Positions 9,711-46,152 are shown, counted from the first letter of the whole stretch. The stretch: DNA of 46,152 nt, filler included, from Jimgerdemannia flammicorona (GCA_003990765.1; 2 parts of 2 records of this genome joined end to end with filler, not necessarily neighbours in it); one strand, 5' to 3'. Translations and numbers: made by a program. The notes: generated by a model from the letters alone, not told the origin.

Positions 9711-9779
9711 CATTCTCAGAGTTCTTCTTTCCTGGACCTTCTCCAATGACAGTAATGTTCTGGTTACTGGGTTCACCTG

Positions 9780-11637: not shown

Positions 11638-11640
11638 AGT

Positions 11641-13640: not shown

Positions 13641-13964
13641 CTGTCTGATATAGAGGAATAAGAGAGTGAACAAGAGAAAGCTTATATAGTGATCACTCAG
13701 AAAAAGAAGAAGAAAGTTGGATGGATGAGTGAAAAAGAATTGTGCAAGAAGATTGCAGAAAGATATGTACTATAAGAAGTCTGCCCCTATAGAATCAAGA
13801 TATACTATATGGAGCATATCAATGATTACTACCAGTATACTGGCAAAATCAAAGAGATTTACCATCAAAGAAGACAGAAGGCCCTCAAGAAACAGGCTAA
13901 AGAGGAAAAAAAGAAGAAGGAAGATGATGAACCACCAGTCCTCCTGAAGGATGATAAAGAAGAA

Positions 13965-17064: not shown

Positions 17065-17474
17065 TCAATGAAGTAATACCACTACCCTCAAGATTACTAG
17101 TACCACCCAGTGAGCCATAGAAAGACAGTGGTGTTCCACCAAGCCACTAATGATAGAGGAATCCTTTGACAGTATCCAGAGTATAGTGCAAACACACTTA
17201 TTACAAATCTCACATTTTAAGACCTACTAGAACTGAACTGAGTTCCAGGAATACTTCAAGTTGGGACAGCTACTGAATTCAAAACTGAAGATGGGAAAAG
17301 AAGACTAGATTAAGGAATGTTAGCTCTCCTATACTCAAATTACAATTACAAAAAGAGTACACAAGTTATTTAAGGATGACAAGTCAGCCTTAGTCACCTT
17401 TCTCTGATATAATTCACATTACACCAACTTCAAGCGATAGTTTTTCAATACAACTCAGAGGAGTGACTATCAAC

Positions 17475-19390
17475 ATGGATGGCAATGATCAAACTGGTGA
17501 GCATACTAGCCAGGGGGGTGATAGTGCCTTTGGCTGACAGCAGGTGGAGAGGAGGGGAGATGGTTTGGAAATACTGGGGGCCTCAATGGCTAGCCAAGGC
17601 TCTGGTGGTGGAGGGAGGGGCAGGCTGAGGCAGAGAGGAGGGGAGAGGTCGACCTTCGCTGACAAGGTCAGAATGGGAAAGATGACTGCAGGCCTTGATG
17701 GTTGGCTGGGCCTGGGGACAGCATCGACAGCGGCTGCTGGGGGACAGGGAGGTATACCCAGGAGAGTCTCAGGTAGCAGGGGAGGAGCAGGAGTAGGGGC
17801 TGGAGATGTGACTACTGATGGAGCTGTGACTGGGGATCTGGCAAAAAATCCAGATGTGACGGCAGCTGGCAATTTGGGACTGGGAGTGGGCATGAGGCCC
17901 AGGGACCTGGCTGATGGGTGACGGGTATGGTATTGGCCCCGTTACTCAAGAAGTTGAGGTCAGAATTCGCAGTCATAATGTGCTTCCAGGGCTTGGCGGT
18001 AATGGTGAGGATGATTTTGGGGCTTGTGGCACAGGAGGCTAAGGGGGCAGCATCGGTGAAGTTCTTGAGGGGAAAGGAAGGGGTTGAGGTGGGGTTTGAG
18101 GAGGAAGATGCCTTGTTGGCAGTCATGGAGAAGGGGGTGATGGTTGGCAAAGTTGTGGTCCCTATGGCCTAGTGCATGTGCTGGGACCCCCGAGTGGTGC
18201 AGTTGATGGTGTTGGACCTCCCGACTGTATCAAAGGAAAGGACCAGGGAGTTGGTGGTAGAGGCGGTCAAGGAGTATGGTGAGATTGTGGATGTTGGGTT
18301 CAAGGTCTGGGAGGGCATGGAGCTTAGAACTGGCGATGTCGATGTCAGGGTGAGGCTGGCTGGGAAGGAGAATATGGAGAAGTCAAGGGACTGGCCAGTA
18401 GTGCTGTGGTGGGGACCAGTGGAGTGTAAGGTCACTAGGGTGAAGGGGACTCAGGAGGAGGAGGAGGACCTGTTGGAGGCTCTGGAGGATCTGGAAGAGG
18501 CAGTGGCAAGGAGGAGATTGGCCTGGAAGGAGTTTGAGGCCAGAATGGTGGTGGGGGAGGTGGATGGGAAGAGGGTCTGGATGGAGAAGGGGGCCTGGGA
18601 GAAGATGCAGGGGAGGAGGATCCAGAAGGAGCTGTTGGCAAAGTTGGGCAGGGGTGGGGTGGGTGGAAGCTCAGGGGAGAGAGTTGCAGAGTCACAGGAG
18701 AGCACTTGGGCTGTGGGGGGAGAGATGGCCCAGGGTGGGGCTCAGATTGGAGTGGAGGAGAGGAGGGAGGGCAATTTGGAGGCAGATGCCAAAATGGGTG
18801 AGGGTGTGCACTCTCAGTATAGTATTCCGGAGGGGGCAGAGGGGGAGGAGGAGCTGATGGATGTGCCGGATAAGGAGTGGGATGAGTCGGTGAGAAGAAG
18901 CACACTGGTGGACCCTGAGGTGGATGGAGGACAAATCACTCAAGGGGCGGTGGAGGCGGTGGATGAGGAGAAGTGGATGTGGAAGACCTTAGAAGGAGTA
19001 GTGGCTGAAGAGCTGGGGGGTGAGGACTTCAGGGTGTTGGAGGAGAAGTATTGGGAGGAGATCCTATGGGGGGAGGAGGTGCCGAGAAAGATGAGGAATG
19101 AGATTCTAGCAGTCCTCCTGGAGTCAGTTGAATATCAAGTTGATGATCAGTGAGAGGAGAAACTTAGGAGGATTGCAAGTGATAGAGCAATTTTCTTATG
19201 GAATTTGAGGAAGGGACTAGAGAAGTGGCATGCTGTCTGCTTAGATTACCGGGTGGATATGGAGGAGGTGGACAGGGTGGAATGTCAGGAAATCTTGGGG
19301 GCTCTGGATGCTCAGGATAATGCAGAGGGTGACTTGGAAGCTGAGCGGTGCTTGGATCTGGCAGGAGATGAGATGAGTATGGAATTATAG
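17475..19390 (+). pseudogene. LINE D ORF1 (putative RRM-type nucleic-acid-binding protein, acidic/coiled C-terminus)
   Basis: Chained ORFs 17544, 17918, 18176, 19205 with one frameshift. YGEIVDV...LRTGDVDVRVRL resembles the Tx1/L1 ORF1 RRM region. Homologues in three other copies. Confidence 0.75.
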
Positions 19391-19421
19391 GTTGAGGCCT
19401 CTATTACAACATTTCTTCAAT

Positions 19422-22400
19422 ATGAACAGTATAACTAGAATTTTCTCATTGAACGTTAATGGGCTATGGGGGTCAGCTAGGAGGAAGTATTTATTTGGTT
19501 GGCTTAAGGGACTGGATGCAGACCTCTTCTTACTGCAGGATGTTCATTATGAGGCAGATGTGGACTTATAGGATTGGACTAAGGAATGGGGGGGTGCAGC
19601 AGTTTGGAGGGGGAAAGTGGGTATTCTTGTTCAGAAAAGGATGGGGGACATTGGAAACATTGGACATTGGGGGTCTCAGGTAGTGTGGGGAGTGTGGAAG
19701 AGGCCTGGATGGGGCCTGCTGATAGTTGGGTCCTGTTACTGCCCAGCAGAGAGAGGGGAGAGGGTGGAATGGATCCATGGACTGAAAGAGGCTGGTGTGT
19801 TGGGAGAAGTTGGGTTAGACTGTATGGGGGGTGACTTCAATATGGTTCGGGATAAGGAGTTGGACAGAACAGATGGAGGGAGAGGTGTGCGGGGTGAAAG
19901 TGGTGGGTTGGATGACTGGTTGGAGATGGAGAAGTTGTGTTCGCTAGTAAACTCAGGAAGATTTTTTTGGACTGAGTGGCGGATGTATATCCACTAGGCA
20001 GCAGGACTGGGCTCCAGGATTAATTGGATTCTAATGGTAGAGTGTTGGAGAGCAGATGTCTGGTCAGCGCTAGAAGTCATATGGTGTCCGTAGTCTGATC
20101 ACTGGGGGCTGCTTGGAGGGGGGAAGTTTGGGGGAAATGTGGATGGGCCTGGACATTGGTGACTAAATTCTTCCTTGTTGGAGGATAGGGTATTGTGGGA
20201 GGGATGGGAATCAGAGGTGGTTGGAAGTATCAGCAGGTGGCGGGAACATGGACTGGAGATTGGGGACTGCTGGAGAAGGCTGAAGGCGAAGGCTCAGGAG
20301 TATTGGAGGGAAGCAGAGAAAGGAAAGTGTACCCAGTGAAGGCAGCGGGTGCTGTAGGCCTCGCAGTGTCTGGCAGCACTCATAGAGAGATGGGCAGGTG
20401 TGCTGGAGGATGGGGCCATGGCTGATTGGTATATTGCGAGGATCCGGCTGGAGGTGAAGGAGCTCAAAGGGGTGCTATACAGGGAGGAGGAGGAGCAGTT
20501 GCAGGGAATGGTGGCCCACCTGCAGTGGCAGGGGCTTGAGGAGGGGGAGAGGCCTACCAGGTTCTTGTCATGGTTGTTACAAGCACGATATATTAGGCAG
20601 TGGTGGGAGGGAGTTTTGGATGAAAATGGTGAGCTGGTGGTGGAGACTCTGGTGATTCTGGGCCTACTGTGAACCCAGTGGGAGAATCTTTGGAGTGAGG
20701 AGGATGGGGGATTGGATGCCCTAGATATTGAAAGACAGCTGGGGGATTGGCACCCAGATCCTGCAATGGGACTTGGGGCATTGGGGGACCTGGTGAGTGG
20801 CAAGGAGATTTGCAGGGTTGTGGCCTCAACGAGTAAGGGGATGACTCCGGGAGAGGATGGGCTCTCTTGGGATTTTTGGCAGAAGATGGCTGGGGTGGGT
20901 GAGGTACTAGAGGAAATGACTGCTATGTATGATGGAGTTCTTCGGTCTGGTGTCTGGATTGGGGGACAGCATTTAGGGCTAGTTTCCTTACTCTTTAAGA
21001 ACAATGGTAGGCAAGAGGACTGGAGGAACTGGCAGCCAATTATGCTTCTCGATATGGACCACAAATTGGTAATGAAAATCTTGGTGATGAGGTTGCAAGG
21101 AATCGCTCAGCAGGTACTTGGTGTGGAGTAACATGGGTTTGTTGGTGGTCGGTTGATTCGAGATGGGACAGCCTGGGTTCATGGAGTGATTGAAGGTGCC
21201 CGGGCGACAGAGGTGGATGGTAGATTGGTGTTTCTAGACCAAGAGAAGACTTATGATAGAGTGCAGAGAATATGGCTGGAGGGAGTGCTGAAGCAGATTG
21301 GTACCCCCTCGGGGGTCTGAAGATTATTAATCAGCCTCTTGGAGGACAGTCAGACAGCATTGGTCATCAATGGCCACAGGGGGATGACCTTTCCCCTGGG
21401 ACGTGGGGTGCCACAAGGGGACCCCTTGTCACCCATATTGTATGCTCTTTCCCTGGAGCTGCTACTGGACAGGATTCAGTGTAAGATTGGGGGTTTGGAC
21501 ATTTTAGGGGTAAACTGGAAGGTGGGGGCCTTTGCAGATGATATGGTGGTCAGACTGGGCTCCTTGGGAGATGTGGGAGAGTTACAGAGGACTGTGGAAT
21601 GGTATGAGTGGGGTTCTGGTGCTAAACTTAACTGGCACAAATACGAGACACTGGTGCTGGGTGCTGGAATTGTTGGAGGTGATATTATTGGGATGGTGGT
21701 ACCAGTGGGTGAACAAGTGTACTACTTGGGGATCTACTTCTCAGTGTTCAGATCTCTTCTTCTCCAGGCATGGTGGGACCATAAACTTCTGGAGTGGAGT
21801 AATGTTCTGCTGTGATGGGGAGGCCAGCATATGTCCCTTGCTGGAAGGGTGATGGTGTTGAATGTGTATTGGATGCCGAAGCTGTGGTATGTTGGATATC
21901 ACTTGGATTTCCCAACCTGAGTGGTCAAGGAGTTGCTGAAGATGGTGAGGTCATGGATCTGGGGAGGGCGGTGAAGCCAGGTTGGTTGGGAGGTACTTAC
22001 ACTGCCCTTGGAAAGAGGTGGGCTGGGCCTAGTGGACTTTGCTAAGCAGCTTCTATGTCTGAGAGCCTGGTGGCTGCAAAGGGCGAGTGAGCTCAGGGGG
22101 CAGGAGTGGGTGCCGCTCATGCAGAGGTTGTGGGAGGTTCGGTACTCCCCATGTGGTAGCTCTGGGGACCTGCTTGCAATGGTGGCCATAGAAGGGAGCA
22201 GGAGGATGCAATATATGGGCTTTTGGTGGGGGGTGGTGGATGGTGCTAAGAAGATTGGACTTTGGTGGCGAGGTGATGAAGCCGAGAAGGATTGGGGACC
22301 GTGGATGTGGTGGTGGGACAGGCTTCTATTGGGGGGTGTTCTGGTGGAGGATTTTCAGCTTGGCGAGGGCCTGGAGTGTCTGCAAGGACTAGGTAGAGAC

Positions 22401-23028
22401 CTGTGGCCAGAAGCCTGGCAGAGGGTTGGAATTGGGGAGGAGTGGGATTGGAATGGACTCTGGCTTTAGAGCAAATGAGTGTGGCAGTGGCTGCCCCCCA
22501 AGTTCTGGGTAGTATGGTGGCGGGTCTTATGGCGGAATGTGATGTTGAACTATCGGTCTGGACATTTGGTGGACGGTGGGATATTTGAGTGCAAGGATTG
22601 TTTCAATGTTGGTCAAGAGAGAGGAGTGGTACAAACACCTGAACATTGGCTTGGTGAATGCGAGGTTTTGGGGGAGTTTTGGAGATGTATTATAGACAGG
22701 GTAGGGCTGGATGCCATGGAGGGGGAGGGAGGGAGGAGATGGGGAGAGCTCTGCCAGTAACTGGTGGGGGGAGTGGGGGATGAATAGCAGACCCTTAGTT
22801 GGGCTTTAGCTATGTGGGTTGGGTTGGCTGGGCATTGGGTCTATGTATTTGAGGAAGGACACCAGGTCAGGGTTGGTGACAAGGTGACCCAGTGGGAGTG
22901 GTTGCTGTTGGACATTTTGAATGGCTGGTGGAGGGGTTGGGGGATGGGTGGGGGGACCCGCAGGGGTCTGGTGCAGTGTATCACCCAGAAGAGTGGTGGG
23001 AGGGTTCGGGTAGTAGGTAATTGGATAG
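19422..23028 (+). pseudogene. LINE D ORF2 (APE endonuclease, RT, C-terminal zinc finger)
   Basis: SLNVNG, GGDFN, SDH, PGEDG, GVPQGDPLSPILY, AFADD, CKDC...HWLGEC. Confidence 0.93.
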
Positions 23029-23029
23029 T

Positions 23030-23129
23030 NNNNNNNNNNNNNNNNNNNNNNNNNNNNNNNNNNNNNNNNNNNNTTAATTAATTAANNNNNNNNNNNNNNN
23101 NNNNNNNNNNNNNNNNNNNNNNNNNNNNN
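23030..23129. other. Assembly gap / artificial contig linker
   Basis: 44 N + TTAATTAATTAA (stops in all six frames) + 44 N = 100 bp. Confidence 0.95.
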
Positions 23130-23615
23130 CCTGCTTCATTTTTCTCAGTGAACAGCATCGGCCACGAGGGGGCACGCGCCCTAGCCGAGTCTTTGAAGCA
23201 GAACACGACCTTGACCTCGCTGCATCTCAGAGGTATGTCAGAACTGAACTGACTGAACTGTGTGAAGCAATGGGGGGTGCGGCTGCGCAATGGGAATCAA
23301 GCTTACGATGTGTGCGTGTTCGCTCATCCCCCCTCTCCTCCTCCTGCTTCATTTTTCTCAGTGAACAGCATCGGCCACGAGGGGGCACGCGCCCTAGCCG
23401 AGTCTTTGAAGCAGAACACGACCTTGACCTCGCTGCATCTCTATGGTATGTCAGAACTGAACTGACTGAACTGTGTGAAGCAATGGGGGGTGCGGCTGCG
23501 CAATGGGAATCAAGCTTACGATGTGTGCGTGTTCGCTCATCCCCCCTCTCCTCCTCCTGCTTCAATTTTCTCAGCGAACAGCATCGGCGACGAGGGGGCA
23601 CGTGCCCTAGCTGAG
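23130..23615 (+). repeat. 213-bp exon+intron tandem repeat (about 2.3 copies visible)
   Basis: Units start at 23130, 23343 and 23556 and are near-identical. Confidence 0.95.
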
Positions 23616-23642
23616 TTTAAGAGTGTGGTTGTTGGATGGTAA
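23149..23642 (+). CDS. 3' end of a host leucine-rich-repeat gene (RNI-like/NLRC3-type 28-aa LRRs); exons 23149-23232, 23362-23445, 23575-23642
   Basis: 84-nt phase-1 exons encoding NSIGHEGARALAESLKQNTTLTSLHL, GT...AG 129-nt introns with a pyrimidine tract, terminal exon ending GW-TAA. CpG intact. Confidence 0.88.
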
Positions 23643-25510: not shown

Positions 25511-27119
25511 AAAAGAGGATATTTTGTAATAAAATTATATATCAAAAAATCTTTGAAGAAAGATACAAATAACAATCATACATATGACCTAATAAAGATA
25601 TTATAAACAAATAATATATAGAATAAGTGTAAAAATTTCATGATTATATTTTAGTCTTAGTACTTTTTCATATCTTTTTACTAGTTTTTTCTTGTCTTTT
25701 CTTAAATATTCTACTATATTCCAGTATCTTCTAAATGTCTAAAAATCTTCACTTAGTACTAAAATACTACTAGAACATTCTTGTCTTTTTTAGGTACCAA
25801 GTATTGTATCTAGCTAGTCATAGAACCTTTTGAAACTTTGTAGAATTCTATAGTCATCTTTGCTGAGAATCTATTTCTTGGCTTCTCTCTTCTTTTTTAA
25901 GATCTTTCTTGAATAAAGCTCAGAATATTTTCTTCCAGAATTTCTTCAAGAATACTTAAACCTATAAGTATCTCTTTGAGCTACTTTAGGCCCAAGAATT
26001 ACTAGTCTTAGCCACTTCTTCTTAAAGAAACTAAAACTGTTATACTTGGTAGCAGTAGTGTCATTATATTTTGCCTTATTAAGAAATCTTCACAAATTCA
26101 GAAATCAGTCATAACTAGTTATACAAGTCCAAAATAAGCTATACTACAGAATCAGTCTACCATCCAGATCCCTCTTCTATAGAAGAAATAGATAATACAA
26201 AACTACAAGTCAATCTGGAGGATATAATTACCTCTATGGTCTATTAGATCTAATAACTTCAAGTATAACTAGAATACCAGAAAACAAGTACTATAGCCAT
26301 ATTATATTCTGCTACTATACTAGTCAGCTTCAAGCCACTCAAGCCAAATACCTTTAATGGTCACCAAGAAGGACTGATCACAGATGTATAGACCTTCTAG
26401 TTGGACCAATACTTCAAACTTACAAGAATGAAAGAAAACATATAAGTCCAATTTGCTATCATACTTCTCTGAGGAAATATAACTATTTGGTAAGCAACTA
26501 TATTATAACTACTACTTCTTATTCAAATACAAGAATCCAAGATTGGAAATCTTTCAAGAAGGCCCTTTACTAGCAGTTTAAGTTTACTAATATATACTAC
26601 TAAGCTAGTCAGAGATAAGCTAGTGAATACTAAGCAACTCAAGTCTATATAAAGTTACAATATACAATTTCTGTCAATTTTACTCAAAATACCAGCAACA
26701 GCTAAAGATAAAAAGATAGACTACTATATCTGAGATCTGAAAGAAAACACACAAGTCAAGATCAAGCTAGAAGAGCCACAGACCCTCAATGAAGCTATGA
26801 GAATTACTGATAGATTTGATATCATTACCTTTGATAACTACTTCAAATCAGAATACTATAAAAAGAACTATTTTGAGAACTATCACAAGAACTAATTCAA
26901 AGCAGTTGGCCCAGCATCAATGGACTTAGATACTATGAATAAGAAGAATACCAAGCTTACCTCTAAATAAAAGACTACTTTCAGAAATCTGGAGCTTATT
27001 TCTTCTATTGCTAAATAGGATATATTACAACCAAATATTCTAAGAAGACCAGCAAACCCTCAAGACCAGTCACCATATTGTCTAAAGATATACCTATCAA
27101 CACCACTCTCAGTAAATCT

Positions 27120-27535
27120 GAACTCAAGATCAATAAGCTTCATTAAAGGCCCAGATCTCTTAATGTCAATCAGAAGGAGCCATTGGTCTTGACCTACACT
27201 CTGTCAAGTAAGTCACTATTCTAGCCAAAGGACAAACTCTAGTATCTACTGGAATTGTAGTCCAATATCCTGAATGATATTATGCCAGAATTGTACTGTA
27301 ATCAAGACTCAGTATCAAATATTATTTAGATATTGATACTAGTATTATTGATTCAGACTAATAGAATAAGTTCAAGTCTTATAATATTAACTAGAAGGAT
27401 CAAGACTACACAGTTAAGGAAGGAGACTGAGTCACACAAATGATCCTAGAAAAAGTCAGTCAACTCAAGATCACAGAAGTTCAAGAACTATCCAAAACTA
27501 AGCAAAACTAGAAAGATTTTGATAATACTGATCAA
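27120..27535 (+). pseudogene. dUTPase remnant of C, between the gag knuckle and the protease
   Basis: GAIGLDL, IIDSD, VKEGD*VTQMILEK, VQELSKTKQN*KDFDNTD (decayed RGxxGFGSTG). Confidence 0.72.
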
Positions 27536-28571
27536 GTAGCAAGTCTCACTAAAAATTAAGCTCAAGCTATACTTATTTCCAAGGGTCTAGTTAAGGGAAA
27601 GAAAGTTCAAATGCTCATAGACAGTAGAGCTATAGAAAACTTCATCAATAAGAATCTCATCAAAAATCTCAAGATTCTCACTAAGCCTATATCTAAAAAT
27701 AATAGTGTAGTTACTACAGATAGCACACTATATCCTATTGAGTCAATTGCAGCCAAACTACCCATCAAGATCCAGAAATATTAGAAATAAGTAGACTTTG
27801 AGATCATACTACCAGAGGATTATAATCTAATCTTAGAAAAACTATGGCTCACCAAATATAACCTGAACATTGATTGGGATAAGAATGAAGTTACTTTACT
27901 TTAAGATAAAGTCAACATCACTATCAAGATAGACAAGACTATGGGCAAAACTCAGATTGTAATACTGACAGTAATATAGTATAAGAAAGTACTCAAGAAG
28001 ACAGTACATACCTTTATTACAATAGTCTGTCCTAAGAAATAAGAAGAAGCTGTCAATTAATGAAAGTATCAAGTTATTGCTAGAAGAATTCAAAGATGTC
28101 TTTCCAGACAAGCTACCTGGTCTATCACCTATATGATAAAATCAAACTACCTCTAAGAGCTATACTATTCAAGAAATATATATATTTTATCTCTTGAAAT
28201 TGAAGTAGTTAAGAAGGAACTAGAAGAACTACTTATATGAAGAGCTATTTAACTAAGCAAATTCCCCTATGGCTCACCAGTCCTATTTGTTAAGAAGAAG
28301 GATAGTACTCTGTAAATATATATAGACTATTATATACTTAACAAGCTTATAGTCAAACCAATATCTGTTATTCCTGATTGATCAAAATTTTCAATACTCT
28401 CAAGAATACCAAATACTTCACTAAGCTGGACCTCATGTCAGATTACTATCAAATCTGAATCAAGTCAGAAGATATTCCTAAGACTATATTCATAACTCCC
28501 TTTGGACTCTATAAATTTCTTGTCCTAGTATTTAGTCTTATCAATACCTCTGCTACATTCTAGACCTTTAT

Positions 28572-30616
28572 TGTAAGCGCACAACCTTCAAGCCACTGAA
28601 ATCACACATCACTCTCTGAACAAATCTGGAAATCACCTGCCTGATCACGAAGCTGAGTCAAACCAAAGTCACAGTGCACAAAGCTAAGTCAATACAAAGT
28701 TACAGAACACAAGATTTACACAAACGGAATCTTACCAATCAGGATCAAATACATATATACCAAGCACCGAGACATGTTGAAACAGAGAACCAAAACAAAC
28801 AATAACTACAAACTTGCAAACATACAAACATGACCACCGAGATCTATAACCACATCTGCGCCGACATTTGGAATGCCATTGTCAACCGAGCAATACCCTC
28901 TCTGCTCCTCATGAATATCCATAGCCTAGCACCCCTCTACTTAGTGGAAGCCCAATGGAACGCCCTGAACATGCTTAACGAGGCCCACCGAATCGAACAA
29001 ATCTTAAGCTACTATCAGATCGGCCGCCTCTTGGAAGACATGGTCAAACACCACCATGACACAGACATTACCCAGATGTCCTAACACCAGAAGCTCATCG
29101 CCTGCAAACACCAAGAACTCTTCTATGAGTATAGCACCATTATTCCCCACCTCCGAGTTACTACCAGTGAAATGGTTGCTACCCTGTCCTATGGCCAAAT
29201 CGACGACATGATACAAGAACTCAACCACAAGTACCTCAAGTACGTTGAAACCACAGACAGAACCTTCCCACACCCCGACGACCATATCCTGCAAATGCCT
29301 CAAGTTGGATATGCTATGAAGGACATCTACAATATAATCCACTTCGATGAAGATGAAGCAGAAGACAATGATCCCTCCAACGCTGACATGACCTCTAGCC
29401 AAGGATCCCTGCCAACCCTGATCACACCGCCAACCTTGCCGATGAACTTACAACAGTTCATAACTGCATATGAGACTTATTGGGACAATGACCACTGGTA
29501 TGAATACCAATCTGCATTCACCCCCGATTACTTCAACTACAATGAAGAGACCAGAGAACACAACCTGTACCTTCAGACAACTCTCGAAATCGAATCAACA
29601 ACTCCACCACCTGAGTACAAGCGATATGAACCACAACCACCAACTTACTACAACCCTGCGACTCATAGTTCTATAACCTATAGAAGGTATGCAGACAGCG
29701 AATCCGATGAAAGTGAAGACAATATACCCATCCTTCACCCACCAATACCTTATCCAGCATATGAAACAGATGATGCTATCCTGTAGAATGGAGATGAAGT
29801 CCCAATGTATTACTACCTCAGCCAACAAGGAGAAGTAATCCGCGAACCATTATTCCTAGACGACTACTTCATCAGAGATGATGCAATTGATGGTGATATC
29901 ATCGAAGACTACCCAGATAGTGCCTAAACCATAAATAGCCTAGCAGTCATAGTATAGTTAGATTAGCCTTGTACGATGTGACTCTGAACTGACTCAGCAG
30001 TCAGACAATATCTTGATATACATATCAGATCACACTTGTACTACATGACTGCATTCTGACTCAGCAAGGCACTTAGTGCTACATCCATATCTAGCATAGT
30101 TCAGATAGCCCCTCACTAGTATAAATACCCCCTCCCCCAGACCTCAGAATCTCAGACTTGAAGACTTGAACAATCCAAACACAACTCCTGAGCACTTTCC
30201 CACAATATTCCTTTACACAACTACTCCTAGTATAGCAATATCATGAATAGCAAATAAACCTATTTAATAACCCACAAACCACTCTTAAGTAAATCTGCTC
30301 CCCGTTAGGTCCCACTCCTAACCCCATCATGAAATTTCCTAATTGGGTATTGTCTGCAGCGATACGCCAATTCAACTAAGCTGGTCTTAGTTTCTTGAAC
30401 TTCCTGAAATACAGAAAATCCTGAACATCTAGAACTAGTCCGAAAAAGGACTTTGGTTGAGACATCAACCTGATCTTGAAATCAATAAGCGTAGAGGACA
30501 TACTCCATATGAAATTGATCTTGACCTTAAGAAAACGGTCTTCCAGAATATCCAGAACTTCCAGAAAACCCTTCCAGAACTACGTAACGGTTACCCCTAA
30601 AAGCAACCCTCTTATA
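28572..30616 (+). mobile_element. 2045-bp solo-LTR-like insertion carrying an ORF, inside the RT of C
   Basis: Termini tgtaag...cttata (cttaca decayed), exact 5-bp TSD tttat. Removal restores ATF*TFMNKIF of RT. TATAAATA at ~30120. Second copy begins at 45858. Confidence 0.9.
28830..29927 (+). pseudogene. 365-codon ORF within the solo LTR, unknown function
   Basis: ORFs 28830-29084 and 29172-29786 are one frame running to TAA at 29927 with two internal stops (TAA, TAG) explicable by C-to-T. ATG context conserved at 46147. Confidence 0.8.
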
Positions 30617-31229
30617 TTTATGAATAAGATATTCAAGAACCAACTATTCATTTTTCTGTTGATATATCTCAACAACATTCTGATCTTTAGTATAATGAAA
30701 AAGGAATACCTTAAGTATATCTGAGTCATTCTGAAGATCATGTGAAAATACAAACTATATACAAAGCTCAAAAAATGTAAATTCTTCAAAGAACAAGTCA
30801 AATATCTTAGCCACATTATCTCTGTACAAGGAAATCAAATAGATCTGTACCAGATAGAGACAATTCAAGAATAATCTATTTCATCAAATCTTACAGAACT
30901 CTTGTCCTTTCTTGGTCTAGCTAACTACTATCATTACTTTATCAAAAACTTCTCTAGCATTACTGAGCCACTGACTAACCTTATGAGAAAGTCCCCTCAC
31001 TCTGATCACTATGTATTCTACACCTGGGATATCTTTTATTAACAAGTTTTCTAAGAACTCAAGAACTGCCTGACCCATACTCTAGTCCTGTATAATATAG
31101 ATCTATATAAGTCTGAAATTAACTGTCATTACTAATATGTTGAATTTTGCCATTAGAGCAGTCCTGTTATAAGATGATGGCAAAGGACACTACTTTATTG
31201 CCTTTGAGTTCCACAAGTTGGCCTCAGCT

Positions 31230-31280
31230 GAACAAAAGCTTGTCTTTTTTTTTTTTTTTTTTTTTGAACAAAAGCTTGTC
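31230..31280 (-). mobile_element. Poly(A)-only retroposed insertion
   Basis: 21 T (31245-31265) flanked by a perfect 15-bp duplication gaacaaaagcttgtc within the RNase H of C. Confidence 0.88.
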
Positions 31281-34181
31281 ACTTATAAGAAAGAGCTACT
31301 GGCAATAATATATATACTAGACCACTGGTGATACTATCTAAAAGATGTTGAGTTTGATGTCATTACTGATTATCAATCTCTTAAGTAAATTAACACCTAA
31401 CCTATCCTGTTATATCTATAAGCCAAATAGAGTCTAAAGTTTCAAACCTTCAATCTGATGATTATCTATAAGCCTGACAAGATACTTATAGTACCAGATG
31501 CCTTAACCAGATACTCAGACCTCACCATAATTATACAAGTCACCTTGGAATTAGAATTTTTAGACCAAATCAGACAAGCTTATAAAGAAGATACTATTAC
31601 CACTAGAGTTTTCTTAAATGAGCTCAAGGATATATACATATACCATCAAGGACAATATGATCTATTATTAAGATAAATTCTATCTATCTGACAATATGAA
31701 TCTACATTATAGGATACTATAAGAACATCATAACTCCCTACTCACTAGTTATCTTAAAATTGAAAAAATAATTAAAAATATCCTGCATCACTACTATTGG
31801 CCAAGTATGGTCAAGAAAATCAAGAACTATATTACTAGCTATGACCTCCATCAGTACAACAAGTCTACTAACCAAGCACCAGCTAGTTTACTACAACTAC
31901 TATCAATTTTAACTAAGAAATTCAAATAAGTTATAATAGATTTTATAACTCAACTACTATAAACTTAATCTGGTACTGATGCTATTATTATATTTATTGA
32001 CTATCTGACTAAAACTATGATTACCAAACTAACTACTACCAATGCTACTATACCTGATATTGCAAGAATCTTCTTCAAGTCCATCTTTTATTACTATCAC
32101 CTACTATAAGTAATTGTCAATAATTATGACCCCAAGTTTATCAGCCACTTCTGGTAAATTCTCTTTAAGACTCTGAAAACCCAATTGGCTATATCTACTA
32201 TCTTATACCTACAAATTAATGGACAAACCAAGTATATAAACAGAACTCTAGAACAAATACTCAGAAACTATATTTCTTATAAGCAAGATGACTGAGACTA
32301 TTACTTAACTTATATAGAATTTATATATAATAATACCATCCAATCATCTATCAGTCTTTTATCTTTTTGGCTACTCCATAGTTAAGATTCTAAGATCTCT
32401 ATAAGTTTAGTCTCTTTTAAGAAAAACAGTTAAATATAAGTTTCTACCACCAAGACCCTTATAGACAAAATAGATGAACTACTCAAGATTACTACTATGA
32501 ATCTCTAGAAGACTCAATAGCATCAAGCTAAGTATACTAATAAGAAATACCATTATATCACCTATACTATTAGTGATCAAGTCCTACTATCTATGGGAGC
32601 CTCAAGATATAATCTCAAGTCAACCATTTATCAAATAAGTTCCAACTTAAGTATATTAGACTCTTTGAGATTACTAAATAAGTCTCTATATCCTCCTACC
32701 ATCTCAAACTACCTGAAACCATAAGAGTATCCAGTCTTTTATATATTATACCTCAAGATCTAAAACTAGTTACTACTCTACTTTGGTCAAATTTTCAAGC
32801 CATCTGTCTCTATAATTATTGAGGATTATATTAAGTATAAAGTTGAGTAAATCCTTGACAAATGAATCTACTACTATTGTCTGAAATATCTGATCAAGTG
32901 AGTGGGCTATCCTGAATATGATACTATCTAAGAACTACTAGTTAACCTCAAGAACTCTCAAGATCTAGTCTAAGACTTTGAAGCAAAATAATTATTCAAT
33001 CTCTATAGTAACTTTTTTAGATTATAAATAATCTACAGTAATAACTAGTACCTTATATATGTATCAGAAGTTTACTTTGGGATACTGGAGCTAGCAAAAT
33101 ATCTAGTAAATAAGAAGTTTACTAAAATGAAGCTACTAGCTGGATTTGAACTCCTCCTAGTTAGTTAGTCTGATAATAGGCCCTCTGTCCTATATAAGAA
33201 TAACTAGTCTCTGCAAATGTGCCAATATCAGTTTGAGAAATTTTGATTAAGTATATTTAGTCTTATATTATCTAAAAACTCAATGAGAATATTAGTTCTT
33301 AAAAAGAGAGGAATGTAATAATTTCACAGTCATATTTTAGTCTTAGTACTTTTTTGTATCTTTTTGCTAGTCTTTTCTTATCTTTTCTAAAATATTCTAC
33401 TATATTCCAGTATCTTCTGAATATCTAGAAATCTTTTCTTAGTACTAAGATACTACTAAAACATTCTTGTCTTTTCTTGTAACTAAGTATCTTATCTTAG
33501 CTAGTTATAGAACCTTTTGAAACATTATAGAATTCTATTAGTCATCTTTGCTGAGAATCTATTTTTTGGCTTTACTCTTCTTTTCTAAGATTCTTCCCTT
33601 AGATTATATATAAATATTGTTATTCTCTACTTAAATAAAGCTCAGAATATTTACTCCCAGAATTCCTTTAAGAATACTTAAATCTACAAGTATTTCTTTG
33701 AGCTACTTTAGGCCTACTAGAATTACTAGTCTTAGCTGCTTCCTCTTAAACAAACTAGAACTATTACAAAAAGTAATAAAGTGATAATATGAACAACTCT
33801 CTGAATATTTGAAATGATAGTGATATAGTATTACTTAGTTAAATTATATAATAAATAGATCATTTGTTTCAAAAGTAAATAGTTTGTCCTAAGTCCAAAT
33901 ATTCAGTTTATTCTAATAATGTATTTACTTACAAAATAAACAAAGCATTTATGTATATATCAAATTGATTACACATTCTTAGTCAAAACTTGTGAACCAT
34001 TACTTAGCCAGTATATATATATAAATACTTCAGTAATTATAGTTAAAATCAATTATAGTATATTCCAAAACTGAATTAATATTTTATTAAATTTTATATT
34101 TTAATTATTTAAATAAAAATACTCTATATAAATATACTTTATATTATAGTATATTATAGTTTTATATTTGAGATATTTAAA

Positions 34182-34619
34182 AATATTAAATTTATTATTT
34201 TTAAATTTTTATTTTATCTTTAAAAAAAATTCTTATTTGTTTAGTTTTAGAATAAAATTATTTATAAATATTCTTTATTTAATAGACAGATAATAAAATG
34301 AGATATATATTTAAAACTTATTATAGTTATTCTTTTAACATTTCTCTATAATTTTATATAATTTATTTTATCTTTTAAAAAAATAATAAAAAATCATTTT
34401 TATTATATATAAATATATAATATATTATTAATATACTGAATTCAAATATTAAAATAATGATATTTTATTAAAAAAAAAGACTATTTACGTATACTTTCTA
34501 CTTATAATAAATTATAATTTATTTATTAAATAGATTAGTTACAGTTTAAGATTATATAAAATATTATATATATTATTAAAATATATACAAGAATAATAGA
34601 AGAATAAATAGATACTGTA
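34182..34619 (+). repeat. Second copy of the AT-rich foldback arm
   Basis: Direct repeat of 1-471, ending at atagatactgta. May extend further left. Confidence 0.85.
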
Positions 34620-37600
34620 CTCAACTTCTTTTGCTTAAATCACTCAGAGTAAGCTAAGCTACATAGATATCTTTTTATGAAAAACAATATATGTTTTCAA
34701 GTTTTTACTTTACCTATATAGGTATACTAGATATGACAAGAGTCTATCTATAATTAATAATAAGTTTTATTGAAATCTGTTAAGTTTTGGTACTATAGAG
34801 AGTCAAAGTTTCTCAGGCTCTAAGTGCTTGGAGAGGAGAAGACCTAGCTTGGACCTCCCTAAGAGTTTTGCTGCTATTGCTAGAGCTGGAGGTATAGTGG
34901 AGAGGACTGATGATCAGGAGTAGGCTACTGGAGCAGATGGGTGATATACTGTAGTGGGGGACAGGAGGGCAGCCTCTAGACCTACAGTTGGTGGGCAGGG
35001 AGAGCATAGTATTGACAGGGGGAAAAGTCAGATGATGGGTCTAGTGATAGGTCAGAGGCCTATTCAGGATCAGGGGTCTGGTAGTGGGACTACTGAGACT
35101 AGTTTTACTAAAGCTGGGTCAGTGGCTGGTAATGGATCTACTAGTGGTACAGTGGTGGCTAAAGAGGTAGTGGTTGGTGTTTCAGGAGACAAGGACAGGA
35201 TGCCCTTGGTAGCTAGAACTGATAAACTGGTGGTACATTTTTTTTTTTTTTTTTTTTTTATATGTAGTCATATAGACTTCTACTTTATTACCAAATCATC
35301 TATATTATACTAATATAGATATACTCCTCTCTCAATCCTATGAGGAACCTCTCCTTCTATCTCTCCATTCCTCTAAAATACTACCAACACCCCTACCACC
35401 TCAATTCTCTCTTGCTCTACTGATAAATCATCTTCACCAGTGACCTCCAAAGACCTCCTCTAGTGTCTCACCCCTGCTACCAACTATTCAAAAGGTCTAC
35501 CATCAGCCACTCTCACCTTCTACTTTACACCTCAAGCATTAGCTACTGATTACTCTTAAATATATATATATATAGTCAATATCTGGTAAGTCCAATCCAA
35601 ATAGCCAAATACCCACCCAATAGTTAATTACTCTTCATCCAACCCTCCTACCAGCTGCCTCCAAAGGTCACCCCACCTCCTCTCCACCATTGGCCCTGGT
35701 GGTCATACTCCCAGCTACTCCTTAATAGCTCTCCAAAAGTCACCCATCATCTCACACTCTCCTAGCCAATGTTTAGACATCTGTACTGCTCTTCTCTTCT
35801 ATCTAATGTTCAGACATTCCTCACACTCCAGGGCACCCCCTTCTACCAAGTAATCTAACTGATAGTTCAACATTATATTACACTACAGGAGTCTCTATTG
35901 TATCACCAAAATCTTGGGGGAAATCCACTGTGCTGCCTGCTTACTCTATGATCAAATACCATTCCAGTCTCACTCTTTGCTAATTCCCACTCTCTGCTAT
36001 ATCTTTTGTCACAAATCTCTCCTGTACTCTCAAAGATACTCTATGCTATCTTCTAAACAAAAGTCATCTACTAGTGTCCCCCCTAACAGAAGATAGTCCC
36101 ACTTCTATATCTGGGGTCTCCAGTCCTTCTCTCTCTTATCTCCCTACTAACAGAGGCCAATTCAGTGAGCCCCATCAACTACTCCCCACCAGAATCTCTT
36201 AAAGTATATCCTCTGGCTCCTCTTCAATGCTATCAGAGAGAGCAGGTTCCCAGAAGTACTATGCGGAGAGAACAATGTCTCTCATAACTTCTGCATGAGA
36301 GGAACCCACTCCTGGTCCCTCAACTCACTAGCTCACTTCAGCCACCATACCCTCAAGCAATGCAGATACTTGGTAAAGTCCACCAGACCCAGTCCTCCCA
36401 AGTCCACTGATAGGGTTATCACCTCTCAGCCAATATAACTCTGTCACCCTGCCCATATCTAGATTCTGGCCATCTTTAACAATCTCTTGACCACCAATAC
36501 CAGAAAGTTCAAGTAGTACTCCAGATACCATAGCTTAGGCAACCAGTATACATTAAACACTATCACTCTCTAGCCAGAGATATATATTGACCACCCTACT
36601 TTAGAAGAGTGCTCTCTCACTTAACTAGCCACCACTCTCACTATATATAGGACAATAAGGAACCATATACTGAGAAGTAGATCTCCAGGTAACAAACTAT
36701 CTCTCCAGCTGGTACAACTGTCCCAATCACATCTCTACCTACTATCTCTTCTCCCAACACCAAAGTCTCACACTTACATATGTCAGTTGAGCTTAGCATC
36801 AGAACATCTCTCATACCATTCCACTACTCTCTTCAGTACTGCTATATCCTCCACCAATCCCAACACTACCACTATATTATTGATAAAGGCCACCACCTTC
36901 CAATTAATCCTCAAAATGTCCAACTCCCCAACCTTGTGTCTAATTCTATTTAGTAAAGGCTCCAGAGATAGTATATATAGTATTGGCAACAGCAGATCTC
37001 CTTGTAGCACTCTTCTGCCTAGTGGGAAAGAAACCCCCTGATGTCTATTCACTAGAATTACTGCCCTACTCTCTTCTAGTAGACTGACCAAGGCTCATCA
37101 AAACTCTGGGGAGACTCCTATATACTTCCACACCCCCTCCAACCACACTTACTGGACTCTGTTATAAGTCTTCTCCTGGACCAGAAATACCAACTAACTA
37201 TCTATCCTTGCAGTCTGAGCTTCTTCAATAATACCATACATCCAAGCCATTCTATCTCTAATCAAATGGCCCCCTATGAAGCTCCTCTGCTCTGCCCCCA
37301 GCACTTGCTGAGCTACTTCTTACAGCCTAGTGACCAATATCTTCTTAACCAGCTTATAATCTATATTCAGTAGCATAATCAGCCACCAGTTCTTCTACTT
37401 CTCTCTTCTCTCCTTGTCCTTATACAGCAGAGCTATAAGATATAGATACTGCCCTCTAATCTACTCTCCAGAGCTAATGACTCTATCACACATCCCTATT
37501 ATCTCTTCCATAATCAACTTAACACCTACTATCTTCTTTCAAAAATTCCACATTAAGCCATTCTCCCCTGGTGCTGTCCCTAAGCTCATCTTTGCCAGTA

Positions 37601-40600
37601 CCCAACAAATCTCCTCCTCTTGGATAGGAGTGCCAAGATCACTTAAGCCTCCTGCCAGATCCAGGTACCAGTCCTCCAGATGTCTTTCAATGTCCAGTAC
37701 CTCCTTCCCTCCTTCTTTCTCACTCTACAACTATTTCCACCAAGTACTCAACTGGCCCAAAATCTCTGGGATCCCAACCACCATCTCTCCTCTCTCATCT
37801 AAAACTCCCTTCCACCTCTGCCTCACCCTTCACACCTGCAGAAGTTTTGACAGAAACTTTGTAGGCCTCTTCATCTCCTCCAAGCCCCCACCTCAGCTGG
37901 GTTACCATGCCCTTCACCTGTAGGTCTTTTTCCTGCCTCAGCAATCTCTTCAGCTTCTCTACCTCCAGCCTGACCTACTGGATCCTCCAATCCCCCTCCT
38001 TGCCATCACTCAGCATATCAGTCTATGATATCAACAATCTCTCTAGCCTCTGAGAGGCCCACTTGATATGCCTCCTCCTCTGAGCACCCCACAACCTCCC
38101 TACCTCTCTCCAGTATCCTTGTACCTCTGATTTCAAATACCACTAATGATCCCCAATCTCCAGCCCCTTTACTCTTCAGCTACATATATATCCTAGAACT
38201 AATATTCACCACCCAAGCATTCCAGAGAGAGGGCTCTCCCAGCAATAAAGTATTTAGATACTAATATCCAGATCCCTCCCCACTTCCCCCCTTCTGTCTC
38301 TCAATAGACTCCAATGATCCGACCATAAGCACCAAACCATCTCCAAAGATCTCCAGACATCCTCTCTCCAATATTTATCAGTTAACATCCAGTCAATCCT
38401 CAAGTCCAGCCATGCTACCCAGTGAGTATAGACTCTGCAATTCCTTCATCTAAGCCTCCCAGTATCTATCAGAGATCTCAGACATTTGACCTCCTCCCAG
38501 ACTTCCATATCCCTACTCCTACCAACTATCTCTCTCTCTCTCTATCAGTTCTGTCTAACTGCCTATCATATATCATGTTAAAGTCCCCACCTAAACAGTC
38601 AATTCCTATAACTACCAACTCACCTAACTCTCATAGTTCTCTTATCTATTCCACCTGCTCTCCCCTTTCCACTGGGCAATAATACAACTTAACAGTCAAG
38701 AGACTCCAGCCTGGCCTCTTCCACACTCTCTACACCACCCTGCTCTCCCAATGTCCAATGTCCCCAATGTCTCCCTTACTCTTTCAAACTAATATATATA
38801 CTCAACTCTGCTATATAGCCACCCCTCTCTATTCCTTTATCCAGTTCAGAGTATCTAAGTCCCCATTACATCTAATATCCTATAGTAAGAACAGATCAGT
38901 GTCCAGCCCCTTCAGCCAACAAAAGATATTCCTGCACCTCACTACTCCCTGTAACCTATTGATATTTAAAGAGAAGATTTTAGTTATACTGTTCATATTG
39001 AATAATGTTTTTGTGAAGAACAATCACTTACTCTACAATTTCATACTCACTATATCACTAGTAACATCCAGATTCCTTTCTGTCTCAAGCTCATTCACCA
39101 CTCCTTGCTGAGCATCTAATACCTCCAAGATCTCCTGACAGTCCTCCCCATCTACTGCCTCCATATTAGCCTGATACTCCTTGCACACTATCTGCCAATT
39201 TTGTCAACCCCTTCTTAGGGCTCTACAGATAGAAAGCATAGTTATTTGCAATTACCAAGAGTGCCACCTCTCTGTTGTCATCTATCTGATACTCTTCAGC
39301 TTCTAGCAGGGCTGCCATTATCTTATTCTGGAGTTTTCACACCATCTCCTCATCTCTTAGAATTTCCCCCCAGTGTCTCTTACTAATCAAATAGAAGTCT
39401 ACCTCCCCTAGCTCCTCAGTCACAATATTTATCAGTGTTTTCCACAGCTACTGCTCCTCATCAATAGTCTCCCCCACTTTCTGGATTATCTCCTTCTCCC
39501 CATCAACCTGCCCTCCATCAGTATTCATCTATACAGACTCATCTCAGTCCTTCTCCAGCATATCTTGCAGCTCATCAACTTCTCCTTCCCCTGAAGGCAC
39601 ACCATACTAAACTCACTCCTCCTCTACTATCACTTCATCTATAGTCATTATGCTCTGTCCTGAGTCACCACCCTCTCCCAGGGTCACCCTCTCCCAGGGT
39701 CACCACTAGTACTGCTCTATTATCCTCTGCCCAAGCACTCACTCTTAACCCTACACCTTTAGCAGTGTTCTCTCCCTCAACTCTCTCTCCCAATTTTGCC
39801 AACAGGTCTTTCTGAATTCGCCTCTCTTGTGCTCTTTCCCAGGCAGCCCAGTCCAGACACACTCTCTTGCCATTTACAATCTCTACTACCATCTTGGCTT
39901 CAAACTCCTTCTAAGCCAACCTCCTCCTCTCAACTGCTCCAACCAGGTCCTCCAATGCCTCTAGTAAGTCCTTCTTCTCCTCTGGTGTCTCCTTCACCCT
40001 CAAGACCTTATACTCCACTGGTTCCCAATTGAGTACTGCTGGCCAGTCCCTCTCTTTGCCAGTATTCTCCTTGCCTACTAGCTGTACTCTGACATTCACA
40101 TCTTCTATCCTTAACTCCATGCCTTCTTTGACCTAAAATCCAATATCTGCAATATCCTCAAACTCTTTGATAACATTTATAATCAATTTCCTGACCATCT
40201 CATTCATCACTGTAGGTACATCTACTATTATCAACTGTATCACTTGGGGGTTCCAGCATAAGCACTGAGCCATAGAGATCACCACCTCCTCCACTATTAC
40301 TTCTTACTTCATTGTCCTCAGCAGTAAATCTTTCTCTTCAAAGTTCACCTCCACCCCTTCCAGTTCTTTCAAAAACTTTACTGAGGCTGCTCCCTTCACC
40401 TCCTAGATCAGAAGTTTCAGAATCATCTTCACTGTAACTACTAAGCCCAAGAAATACAATGTAATAGTAAAATCTGACATTGATTTCTTAAATAATAGTG
40501 CTGTCACCAGGCCCAATATACCATCATCCAGGTCCCCAGGCCTTGTGTCTCCCCTCAGCCCAGATCTACTATCAGTCATCACATCTGGATTTTTTTTCAG

Positions 40601-41750
40601 ATTAGCAGTCTCCTCTCCATCAGCAGTCCTACTCTCTCCAGTCTCAACTTCCCCAGTCCTACTGTTACTGTCACTATGGGCTACTCTACTCAGCCCTGCA
40701 GCCCTCTCCTTCTCCTTACCTTTGTGCAACCAACTCTCTAATCCAGTCAATGGGTATTCTGCCTTAATCTTATTAGCAAAGCTCATTCTCTCAGATCTCT
40801 GTCTACTAGCTCCTCCTCTTCCACCCCCTTATCAATCAGCAAGAGTGCCCACCAGACTCCCCCTCAAGTCATGACTCCTTCTCACATACTGTCAGTCAAA
40901 TACACTAGGGCCACCCTGCTTAGTATATCTCTCAGAATACTCATCAGTTACTATATTACTATCCCTTTTCTCCAAAAATGATGTTGAAAGTATTGCTAGA
41001 AGTTTGTACAACCTGAATATTACCAGAGGTAGTACATTCTTTCTTTTATAAGTCAGTAGCTATGTGGGTGATTTCTGTCAACTTCCTGGGGCCAGGACTG
41101 TCAGCCAGAGATGTTCTGAGACTGGTGGGTGAATAAATTGCTAGAGCAGACTTATTGAGATTTATTCCATTGGTGGAGACAGTTGAGGTTAGTTTTGTTG
41201 AGAAGGATGTAATTGTGAAGGCAATGGAGAAAGGGCTGATGGTTAGGAATATCAAGGTTCAAATAGTGAGATGCTTGAGGTAGGACCCATATGTGGTATA
41301 TCTGGTGGTTGAAGGATTGCTAATACTGGGCAGATAGAAGATGAAGGAGATGATGGCCAAGGCTCTGGAAGGTTTTAGTGAGATGGTGGATTTTGGTTTC
41401 ATGTTTTAGGAGAGTATGAAGCTGAGGAATGACAATTGCAAGATATTGGTATAGTTGGAAGAGAAGGAGGCAATAGGATTGGAGTGAGACTGGTCTGAGA
41501 TCATTTGAGTTAGTGGACAGGAGTGCTAAGTCTGAAGGAGAAAAGGATCTGAACAGGAAGGAGAACTGTTGCTGATTGCTCTAGAGGAGAAGGAGGAGAC
41601 AAAGGCTTTGTAGATAAGAAAGTAGGAGAAGTTTGCAAAATACTGGGTCAGGATTCAGACAGATGGGAAGAGGAGGTGTTGGTATAAGGAGAATTGGGAG
41701 TAGTTGCAGACTGTGTTCCAGGAGTCTGCTAAGGAGGAGGCCATGAGCAA
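34620..41750 (+). mobile_element. Divergent LINE F 5' region/ORF1 in two pieces (34620-35239 and 41028-41750)
   Basis: Removing LINE E restores the frame KLVVHSFFYKS...VRCLR*DPYVVYLVVEGL...EMVDFGF, homologous to ORF1 of D. 5' boundary uncertain. Confidence 0.7.
35238..41027 (-). mobile_element. Full-length (~5.8 kb) L1/Tx1-like LINE E, degenerate
   Basis: Poly(T) at 35238-35259, AATAAA on - at 35284-35289, TSD ggtggtacatt/ggtagtacatt. ORF1 ~40960-39035, ORF2 from 38996 with VLQGDLLLPILY and AFINN (decayed AFADD). Confidence 0.93.
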
Positions 41751-42399
41751 AATTCAGATAATACAAGACTCAGACAATACTTTCCACAACATTTTTGTTG
41801 AAAGGAGACTATCAATATGGACAGCAATGAATGTACTGGTGAGCATGTTAGCCAGGGGGGCAGTAGTGTCTTCGACTGGCAGCATGTAGGGAGGAGGCAG
41901 GGAGACAGTTTGGAGATGCCAAAGCCTACTATGGTTGGCTGTGGTGTTGATAATAGAGGAGATGGGTGGGGGAGCAGGATCTGGGGCTGGTGACATTACT
42001 TTACAAGAATAAAGGAAGGTGAGAGAACTGGAAGAACTGGTGGCCAATTATGCCACTGGATATAGACAGAAAGTTGGTGACTAAGGTGGTGGTCACAAGG
42101 CTATAGAAGGTGGCCCAGCAAGTCTTGGTTATTGAGCAGAGGGGCTTTGTAGGAGGCCAGCTAGGGATGGCACAGCCTGGGTATATGGAGTTATTAAAGG
42201 GGCATGAGCTTGTGGACTGGATGGGCAACTGGTCTTCTTGGACCAGGAGAAGGCTTATGACCAGGTGTGGTGAGTCTGGCTATTGAAAGTATTGGATAGG
42301 ACTGGAGTACCACACCAGTTCTGGTCAGCAATGATCAGTCTACTGGAAGGGAGTAGGGCTGCACTCATATATAATAGACATAAAGGGGTACTGGACCTT
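41750..42399 (+). mobile_element. Internally deleted LINE G (5' end fused to the RT region)
   Basis: 41750-41935 matches the LINE 5' UTR/ORF1 start. From ~41950 it reads WVGEQDLGLVTLLYKNKG...FLDQEKAYD. Confidence 0.75.
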
Positions 42400-45857: not shown

Positions 45858-46152
45858 TGTAAGCGCACAACCTCCAAGCCACCGAAATCACATGTCACCC
45901 TCTGGACAAGCCACTGAAATTACATGCGACCTCCGAACAAATCTGGAAATCACCTGCCTGATCACGAAGCTGAGTCAAACCGAAGTCACAGCGCACAAAG
46001 CTGAGTCAATACGAAGTCACGGAATACAAGATTCACACAAACGGAATCTTACCAATCAGGACCAAATGCATATATACCGAGCACCGAGATACGTCGAAAC
46101 AGAGAACCAAAACAAACAACAACCACAACTTCCAATATACACAAACATGACC
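45858..46152 (+). mobile_element. Start of a second, less mutated copy of the ORF-bearing LTR
   Basis: tgtaagcgcacaacc start. Aligns with 28572-28835, retains more CpG, and has one extra ~31-bp subrepeat. Confidence 0.92.

Follow-up and report, generated by a model that had tools for sequence, protein, structure and literature searches.

The long terminal repeats (LTRs) of retrotransposons are usually treated as non-coding control regions, and a protein frame inside one is out of the ordinary, since these ends as a rule code for nothing. In mouse mammary tumor virus (MMTV), sag is a sense frame in U3, the unique 3′ region of the LTR, between the polypurine tract (PPT) and the LTR promoter, and the MMTV literature calls it the "LTR ORF" (open reading frame); nef of the human and simian immunodeficiency viruses (HIV/SIV) overlaps U3 similarly. 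To our knowledge, the accessory genes of LTR retrotransposons come only from the internal region, and U3 protein genes from a few retroviruses. Here we describe a unit in a 46,152-nt stretch of DNA from Jimgerdemannia flammicorona (GCA_003990765.1; two parts joined with filler, hereafter the window) that is very probably a solo LTR and that probably carries, in its U3, the remnant of a protein gene.

Among Ty3/gypsy elements, additional open reading frames (aORFs) are fast-evolving orphan accessory frames beside gag-pol, and many, as far as the accessible parts of the sources go, have no assigned role; they include the plant aORFs, ORF0 of Retrosat2 and CERV of Cer1. ORF0 is placed 5′ of gag-pol with no assigned function in the portion available to us (PMC3485330), and CERV, in the corresponding portion of its source, is required to export the genomic RNA and is spliced from internal exons (PMC10309623). 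In the accessible text of a review of plant aORFs the phrases "in the LTR", "within the LTR" and "inside the LTR" are absent (PMC7264820). The available parts of work on Cassandra and Helenus/Ajax describe non-autonomous LTR retrotransposons in which the LTR includes a gene-like unit that has its own promoter and is duplicated along with the LTR (10.1101/2023.07.14.548913, PMC10886601). Our search of the open literature turned up no non-retroviral LTR element with a protein frame in its LTR, which is not proof that none is in print.

Results

The inserted unit and its borders

The unit is a clean insertion in an older element, since excising it with one TTTAT rejoins its flanks into a single gypsy reverse transcriptase (RT) reading (...ATF-stop-TF, joined to MNKIF...). 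A first-pass annotation of this DNA had described TG..(C/T)A termini and a 5-bp target-site duplication (TSD), and both are present as it said: TGTAAG opens the unit at 28572, CTTATA closes it at 30616 and TTTAT stands letter for letter at both borders. It had also reported that the ends are not repeated inside and that gag and pol are missing. This too held up, with self-comparison finding no internal repeats of the termini within 28572-30616 and Pfam returning 0 families for 3/3 queries. The terminal inverted repeat is 6 nt only, with 5/6 pairing in this copy; Pfam found no transposase domain in the unit, and long terminal inverted repeats are also absent.

Other copies were traced in Logan contigs of four runs, placed on 28372-30816 at 80% likeness (contig pieces placed: X1 3618, X3 478, X8 352, X18 518). 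In 24 of the 188 rows of loose contig ends, four lie at 30614/30616 and two at 28571/28572, the loose ends from other copies start with CA at 30614, and the flanks of other copies mostly disagree (agreement ~0.6). Loose ends at the borders together with disagreeing flanks indicate borders that are constant across many insertions, with CA as the usual 3′ end. Copies are dispersed, as seen in two insertions within the window, one in the gypsy RT and one behind an element resembling a long interspersed nuclear element (LINE-like), and in contig pieces with differing flanks. One X3 contig runs past the 3′ end into CAACTTGGTAG, the same 11 letters as the LTR/primer-binding site (PBS) junction of a resident gypsy at 11641, and one X3 contig meets the unit start with the polypurine ...AAGAAGGGGAGAG. 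We read one X1 contig, with caution, as coming from a related RT copy that lacks the unit: in it 28533 is linked to 30620 through 36 other letters (side 35, likeness 80).

Two complete gypsy-type elements in the window provide a local standard. The one that received the insertion has LTRs of ~417-455 bp at 81% identity, and the other, at 3300-12417 on the minus strand, has 777-bp LTRs at 92% identity. Both have LTR ends TGTAA..TTACA and a 5-bp duplication, and one resident LTR ends in the variant TTATA. Their PBS begins 2 nt past the LTR (CT-TGGTAGCAGTAG and AC-TTGGTAGTAGTAG), and a purine run abuts the 3′ LTR (AAAAAGAGAGGAA and AAGGAGGGAAGGA). Within the unit, TATAAA is followed by AATAAA in an order and at a spacing that fit an LTR's U3, repeat (R) and unique 5′ (U5) regions by motif match alone. 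The ends, the TSD, the order of the signals, the letters at contig junctions and the resemblance to the LTR ends of the resident gypsies all favor the proposal, first made in that annotation, of a solo LTR, and we conclude that the unit is very probably one, of a high-copy Ty3/gypsy-type family. We infer the U3/R/U5 layout, and LTR status itself from the junction hints.

The reading frame and its relatives

Between the unit's start at 28572 and TATAAA at 30120, on the same strand, lies a 365-codon frame, placed as the first-pass annotation had it, upstream of the TATA box and within the putative U3. Its description as an open ORF of ~365 aa did not survive: the frame at 28830-29927 is closed by a TAA and a TAG. 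At this locus the frame is a broken pseudogene, and the copy in the window is dead, with two premature stops, CpG decay and a 3′ terminal CA that has changed. The frame's longest uninterrupted stretch has 233 codons (29085-29783), or 204 codons counted from an ATG. An in-frame stop stands 27 nt upstream of the frame's ATG, and past 29925 stops come every 10-70 nt. No AG dinucleotide occurs in the last 40 nt before the ATG, so that a splice acceptor directly upstream is not evident.

The frame is also not random. It holds 3 stops, the terminal one included; the two other sense frames have 16 and 30, and 2000 dinucleotide-preserving shuffles averaged 21.4 ± 4.3 (minimum 10), with 0/2000 at <=3. 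G content by codon position is 27/9/13%.

Relatives were sought among 5.8 billion clustered proteins, with 1.84 billion representatives searched by full HMMER, covering ~15 billion predicted proteins. Two were found. P0003 (128 aa) matches codons 1-128 with 110/128 identical residues and has Q where the window copy has TAA. P0002 (247 aa) matches codons 115-364 with 160/250 identical (64%) and 205/250 positive, and has W at the position of the TAG. It follows that the frame of the family ran open through both breaks. The P0002 alignment contains two gaps of two residues each, both thus in frame. Six of the 18 differences from P0003 pair R in P0003 with H, C or Q in the window copy, the mark of CpG decay in the latter. 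A further match, the tandem-repeat protein P0004 (E 4.5e-6), is alike across only 38 residues at 34% and was dismissed as a relative.

The P0002 comparison was set against a neutral simulation in which the window's own 750 nt were substituted down to 64% identity at transition/transversion ratios of 2 and 10. This takes ~18-19% nucleotide change and introduces 3.4-4.3 new stops, with none in 1-2% of runs. Neutral BLOSUM positives came to 74-75 ± 1.6%, and the observed 82% was reached in 0/1000 runs. In 12 of the 18 rows of contig indels, the four inside the frame form two compensating pairs, and the eight outside it measure 1, 1, 1, 4, 4, 4, 8 and 2 nt. The frame is, on sequence grounds, a real feature of the family: non-random, read through in relatives and conservative in the deep comparison. 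We infer selection on it, with moderate evidence of constraint, and in our reading it was maintained as subfamilies diverged and decayed freely once copies were dead.

Searches for more copies elsewhere brought no relatives. A protein-pattern scan matched 339 stretches in metagenome contigs (0 relatives), 20 in viral contigs (0 relatives) and 12 in prokaryote genome contigs (0 relatives). A 20-nt DNA pattern found 3 loci in metagenome contigs, with likeness limited to 20-21 letters at the pattern, and two DNA patterns had 0 matches each in viral contigs. In prokaryote genome contigs one DNA pattern had 1 match, in a contig titled as a bacterium's, which was taken for chance, with no alignment made.

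The predicted protein

The predicted protein is acidic (pI 4.35). The first-pass annotation had proposed a helical N-terminal domain and a tail rich in Asp, Glu, Tyr and Pro; AlphaFold2 (AF2) models residues 1-141 as helices, at very low confidence, and the remaining 223 residues contain 46 Asp plus Glu, 22 Tyr and 24 Pro, in keeping with both parts of that description. Short blocks shared with P0002 (FPHPDDHILQMPQV, AFTPDYFNYNE and EPLF.D.YFIRDD) suggest linear motifs in a disordered tail. A match to a characterized transposable element or host family, which would have undercut the original idea, was not found in Pfam or among PDB sequences, where the best match had an E of only 0.4. An Atlas model of P0002 (predicted local distance difference test, pLDDT, 0.39) gave no usable feature match. 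A late-domain reading of the PPEY and PPTY motifs was dropped because they are not conserved in P0002. The trans-activator or anti-silencing role first suggested for the protein is a guess from its composition.

Regulatory modules and RNA signals

The unit has two clusters of candidate promoter elements. The first, near its start, contains AP-1/GCN4-like heptamers, TGAGTCA at 28654 and a decayed TAAGTCA at 28685; the second copy retains both heptamers, and nearly all contigs placed have G at 28686. The TATATA that follows is a possible promoter of the frame. The second module, TGACTCA twice and then TATAAA, is in part an inverted copy of the first. TGA(C/G)TCA occurs 3 times in the unit against 0.22 expected (P 0.0015), and each arm of the inverted repeat holds one such site. 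Since the arms lie at 28652-28687 and 29963-29998, the frame is bracketed by an inverted repeat; the 1.35-kb segment between them may have been captured as a cassette, or else the arms may represent one enhancer duplicated in opposite orientation.

At E up to 1, Rfam produced a single weak match across 28372-30816 (E 0.85), which falls outside the unit, and none inside; a tRNA search of the window found none. The RNA fold of 30181-30460 has a z of -1.5. Summed contig depth in X8 and X18, runs that may be RNA, is much greater over 30176-30585 than across the frame, and one X8 contig has, immediately ahead of 30180, 22 letters that look like Illumina adapter. Because contig depth does not rank the parts and neither run is recorded as RNA, we did not use these observations as evidence of start sites or expression.

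Table 1. Positions of the unit, its signals and the neighboring copies in the window
Feature	Position	Strand	Details
Solo-LTR-like unit	28572..30616	+	2045 bp, TGTAAG...CTTATA; CA end in other copies
Left TSD copy TTTAT	28567..28571	.	Identical five letters at 30617-30621
Right TSD copy TTTAT	30617..30621	.	Pairs with 28567-28571
Orphan protein frame	28830..29927	+	365 codons, broken by two in-frame stops
In-frame TAA, codon 85	29082..29084	+	Q there in P0003
In-frame TAG, codon 319	29784..29786	+	W there in P0002
Two ~21-nt direct repeats, 31 nt apart	28647..28698	+	Each with an AP-1/GCN4-like heptamer
TATATA	28754..28759	+	Only one of the unit; 76 nt before the ATG; also in second copy at 46071
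Two 40-nt direct repeats	29960..30066	+	Each with TGACTCA (29990, 30057), 5′ of the TATA box
36-nt inverted copy	29963..29998	.	78% complementary to 28652-28687
TATA box	30120..30128	+	TATAAATA, the unit's only TATAAA; putative LTR promoter near U3 end
AATAAA	30253..30258	+	Only one of the unit; putative polyadenylation signal in R
Host gypsy receiving the insertion	25628..33768	+	LTRs 25628-26044, 33314-33768; PBS TGGTAGCAGTAG from 26047; PPT 33301-33313
Second copy	45858..46152	+	First 264 nt of the unit and one additional 31-nt repeat; ATG included; cut by window end

Genomic setting

Decayed mobile elements crowd the window, among them the two complete gypsy-type elements and four pieces of one LINE-like family. 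The second copy of the unit (295 nt, ~89% identical to the first) follows a LINE-like element that breaks off ~2 kb sooner than its relative at 17465-22855. At its start the unit contains ~31-nt tandem repeats in variable number, with one more in the second copy (45858-45935 as against 28572-28617); one X1 contig likewise has one extra repeat relative to the first copy. Between the two copies there are 24 aligned differences, 23 of them transitions, and at 8 positions a CpG of the second copy is TpG or CpA in the first. The observed/expected ratio of CpG is 0.12 in the window, 0.00 in the halves of the host gypsy and 0.52 in the unit, which indicates that the unit is younger than its nearly CpG-free surroundings. 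The internal region of the host gypsy (26043-28571 and 30617-33313) contains zero CpG in 5.2 kb, and the missing CpG points to very strong methylation-driven C-to-T decay of the genome's repeats.

Several features of the resident elements were recorded alongside. A dUTPase domain, an uncommon extra in gypsy-type elements, lies upstream of RT in two different ones, at 9205-9582 (minus strand; Pfam E 5e-18) and 13776-14333 (plus strand; E 2e-15). The LINE-like family has four copies, at 17465-22855 and 41807-45700 on the plus strand and 35723-40628 and 2197-3026 on the minus strand, which are 64-78% alike, with an RVT_1 match at 21321-21815. On its coding strand G is extremely common and C rare (GC skew up to +0.58), the reverse of the unit, whose sense strand is G-poor. 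A search with a LINE-like ORF found no more than two fragments, and the taxa that the Atlas returned for a gypsy integrase were a mix of eukaryotes. A 213-nt tandem repeat (2.3 copies, 97-99% alike, 23130-23616) adjoins an assembly gap (N at ~23030-23130) flanked by TTAATTAATTAA. An AT-rich repeat of ~450 nt (~17-21% G+C) occurs twice at 83% identity, at 1-472 and 34182-34619, and inverted repeats at 434-540 and 808-914 lie near it.

Discussion

We favor a model, which we consider probable, that takes the unit for a solo LTR left by a high-copy Ty3/gypsy-type family whose long U3 holds, in sense, a 365-codon gene for an acidic orphan protein. The U3 would be unusually long (~1.6 kb, from 28572 to ~30180) and the family's PPT would lie upstream of the gene. 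With the PPT in that position, reverse transcription would copy the gene into both LTRs in each cycle, and LTR-LTR recombination would leave it in every solo LTR. Since the gene appears to have been kept open during subfamily divergence, its product would most likely be an accessory protein of the element. We can offer guesses as to its mode of expression and role. We envision that the first module (the TGAGTCA pair and TATATA, 28654-28759) drives a ~1.4-kb mRNA for the frame, terminating at the AATAAA of the LTR, or alternatively that the full element yields the protein through a subgenomic RNA; the second module would drive the element's genomic RNA. A bolder version makes the LTR a complete gene, with its own enhancer-like TGAGTCA pair and TATA, the 365-codon frame and the LTR poly(A) signal, so that every LTR of this very abundant family, solo LTRs among them, could supply the protein in trans. 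There, the acidic, helical-plus-disordered protein would activate the second LTR-internal promoter, which has the same TGA(C/G)TCA sites, or block silencing. We regard this version as quite unlikely.

A number of observations weigh against the model that we favor. On the side of the LTR, the PBS-like and PPT-like junctions come from one short contig each and are hints, not proof; a direct pair of units around gag-pol was not seen in the contigs searched; and a second 3′ flank (X8, 255 nt) has TGGTAGC 10 nt past the end, an unusual spacing. On the side of the gene, the two relatives are the only ones in ~15 billion proteins and both are metagenome fragments, P0002 is a called gene, so that its openness is partly ascertainment, and the comparison with P0003 looks neutral (114 positives as against 115-116 expected). 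Among the contig pieces listed, divergence is ~11-19% in the frame versus ~7-10% in most pieces of the 3′ part. Pfam-A at E up to 1 gave 0 families for P0001, P0002, P0003 and two pieces, AF2 on a 3-row alignment reached no confident fold (mean pLDDT 31.5, predicted template modeling score, pTM, 0.17), and the window copy's PPEY and PPTY are not kept in P0002.

Some of these points are what would be expected if the unit were a solo LTR and the frame a passenger, that is, host or foreign coding DNA captured in U3, perhaps as the 1.35-kb segment, useless there and decaying. The inverted repeat around the frame (28652-28687 and 29963-29998), the neutral-looking P0003 comparison, frame nucleotides conserved no better than most of the LTR's 3′ part and the failure of the Pfam, PDB-sequence and AF2 analyses to yield an assignable function all fit such a history. 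Against it, the replacements in P0002 are more conservative than in any of the 1000 neutral simulations, both gaps in that alignment are in frame, the frame stayed open through ~18% nucleotide divergence, over which 3.4-4.3 stops are expected, and the 1.84 billion representatives contain no host-gene relative. We think a passenger unlikely, though deserving of serious thought. That the long frame is a meaningless by-product of a G-poor, A/C-rich strand is scarcely credible: the strand is indeed skewed (A 33%, C 29%, G 16%, T 21%) and its antisense has a 147-codon open stretch, but none of the shuffles comes near the 3 stops observed (minimum 10), the other sense frames are full of stops, codon-position periodicity is present and the aligned parts of the relatives, at 64% and 86% identity, are open.

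Doubt of another kind concerns the nature of the unit, which might not be an LTR at all but a self-standing, non-autonomous unit with its own gene, moved by an integrase-type enzyme that leaves 5-bp duplications or as a DNA transposon with short TGTAAG/CTTACA inverted ends. Short inverted ends and a 5-bp TSD suit either origin, no paired copy was seen, and the flanks of other copies mostly disagree (agreement 0.6). Yet bona fide gypsy LTRs of the window have identical ends, X3 contigs show PBS-like and PPT-like letters right against the unit, TATAAA and AATAAA occur once each and in LTR order, and Pfam found no transposase-like domain; we therefore judge such a unit very unlikely.

If the solo-LTR model with a U3 gene is correct, a shifted PPT, or DNA captured behind the PPT, can put a gene into the repeat. 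Gene dose would then be doubled per element and the gene would survive the element in solo LTRs, which would make it possible to test a factor that a transposon encodes and that thousands of its remnants furnish. Were the LTR a complete gene, it would represent a retrotransposon "public good" outside gag-pol, multiplied by solo-LTR formation. Masking of LTRs ahead of gene calling would hide genes of this kind.

How does the locus compare with known systems? Like MMTV sag, the unit's frame is in sense in the putative U3, 5′ of the putative LTR promoter, and would hence be present in both LTRs and in solo LTRs. Unlike sag and nef, to which it has no sequence likeness (0 Pfam-A families at E up to 1), it belongs to a gypsy-like element in a CpG-decaying genome with no env in evidence, not to a vertebrate retrovirus. 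Contigs of the same repeat family also occur in a soil-metagenome run; we do not take the soil-metagenome shares of other runs as evidence of habitat. The aORFs, ORF0 and CERV, in the accessible parts of their sources, lie in the internal region, whereas this frame is wholly inside the TSD-bounded unit. Cassandra and Helenus/Ajax, as described in the portions of those papers available to us, carry small-RNA cargo (5S rRNA and others), in contrast to the protein frame of this unit, which matches no Rfam family. The two resident gypsies (3300-12417 on the minus strand and 25628-33768) share with the unit the TGTAA..TTACA type of LTR ends and a 5-bp duplication, and the unit's X3 contig junctions resemble their TGGTAG-type PBS junction and purine-rich PPT. 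Their LTRs have no BLASTN likeness to the unit, and at 777 bp and ~417-455 bp they contain no frame of at least 120 codons; the unit, with the same kind of ends, is 2045 bp long and has one of 365.

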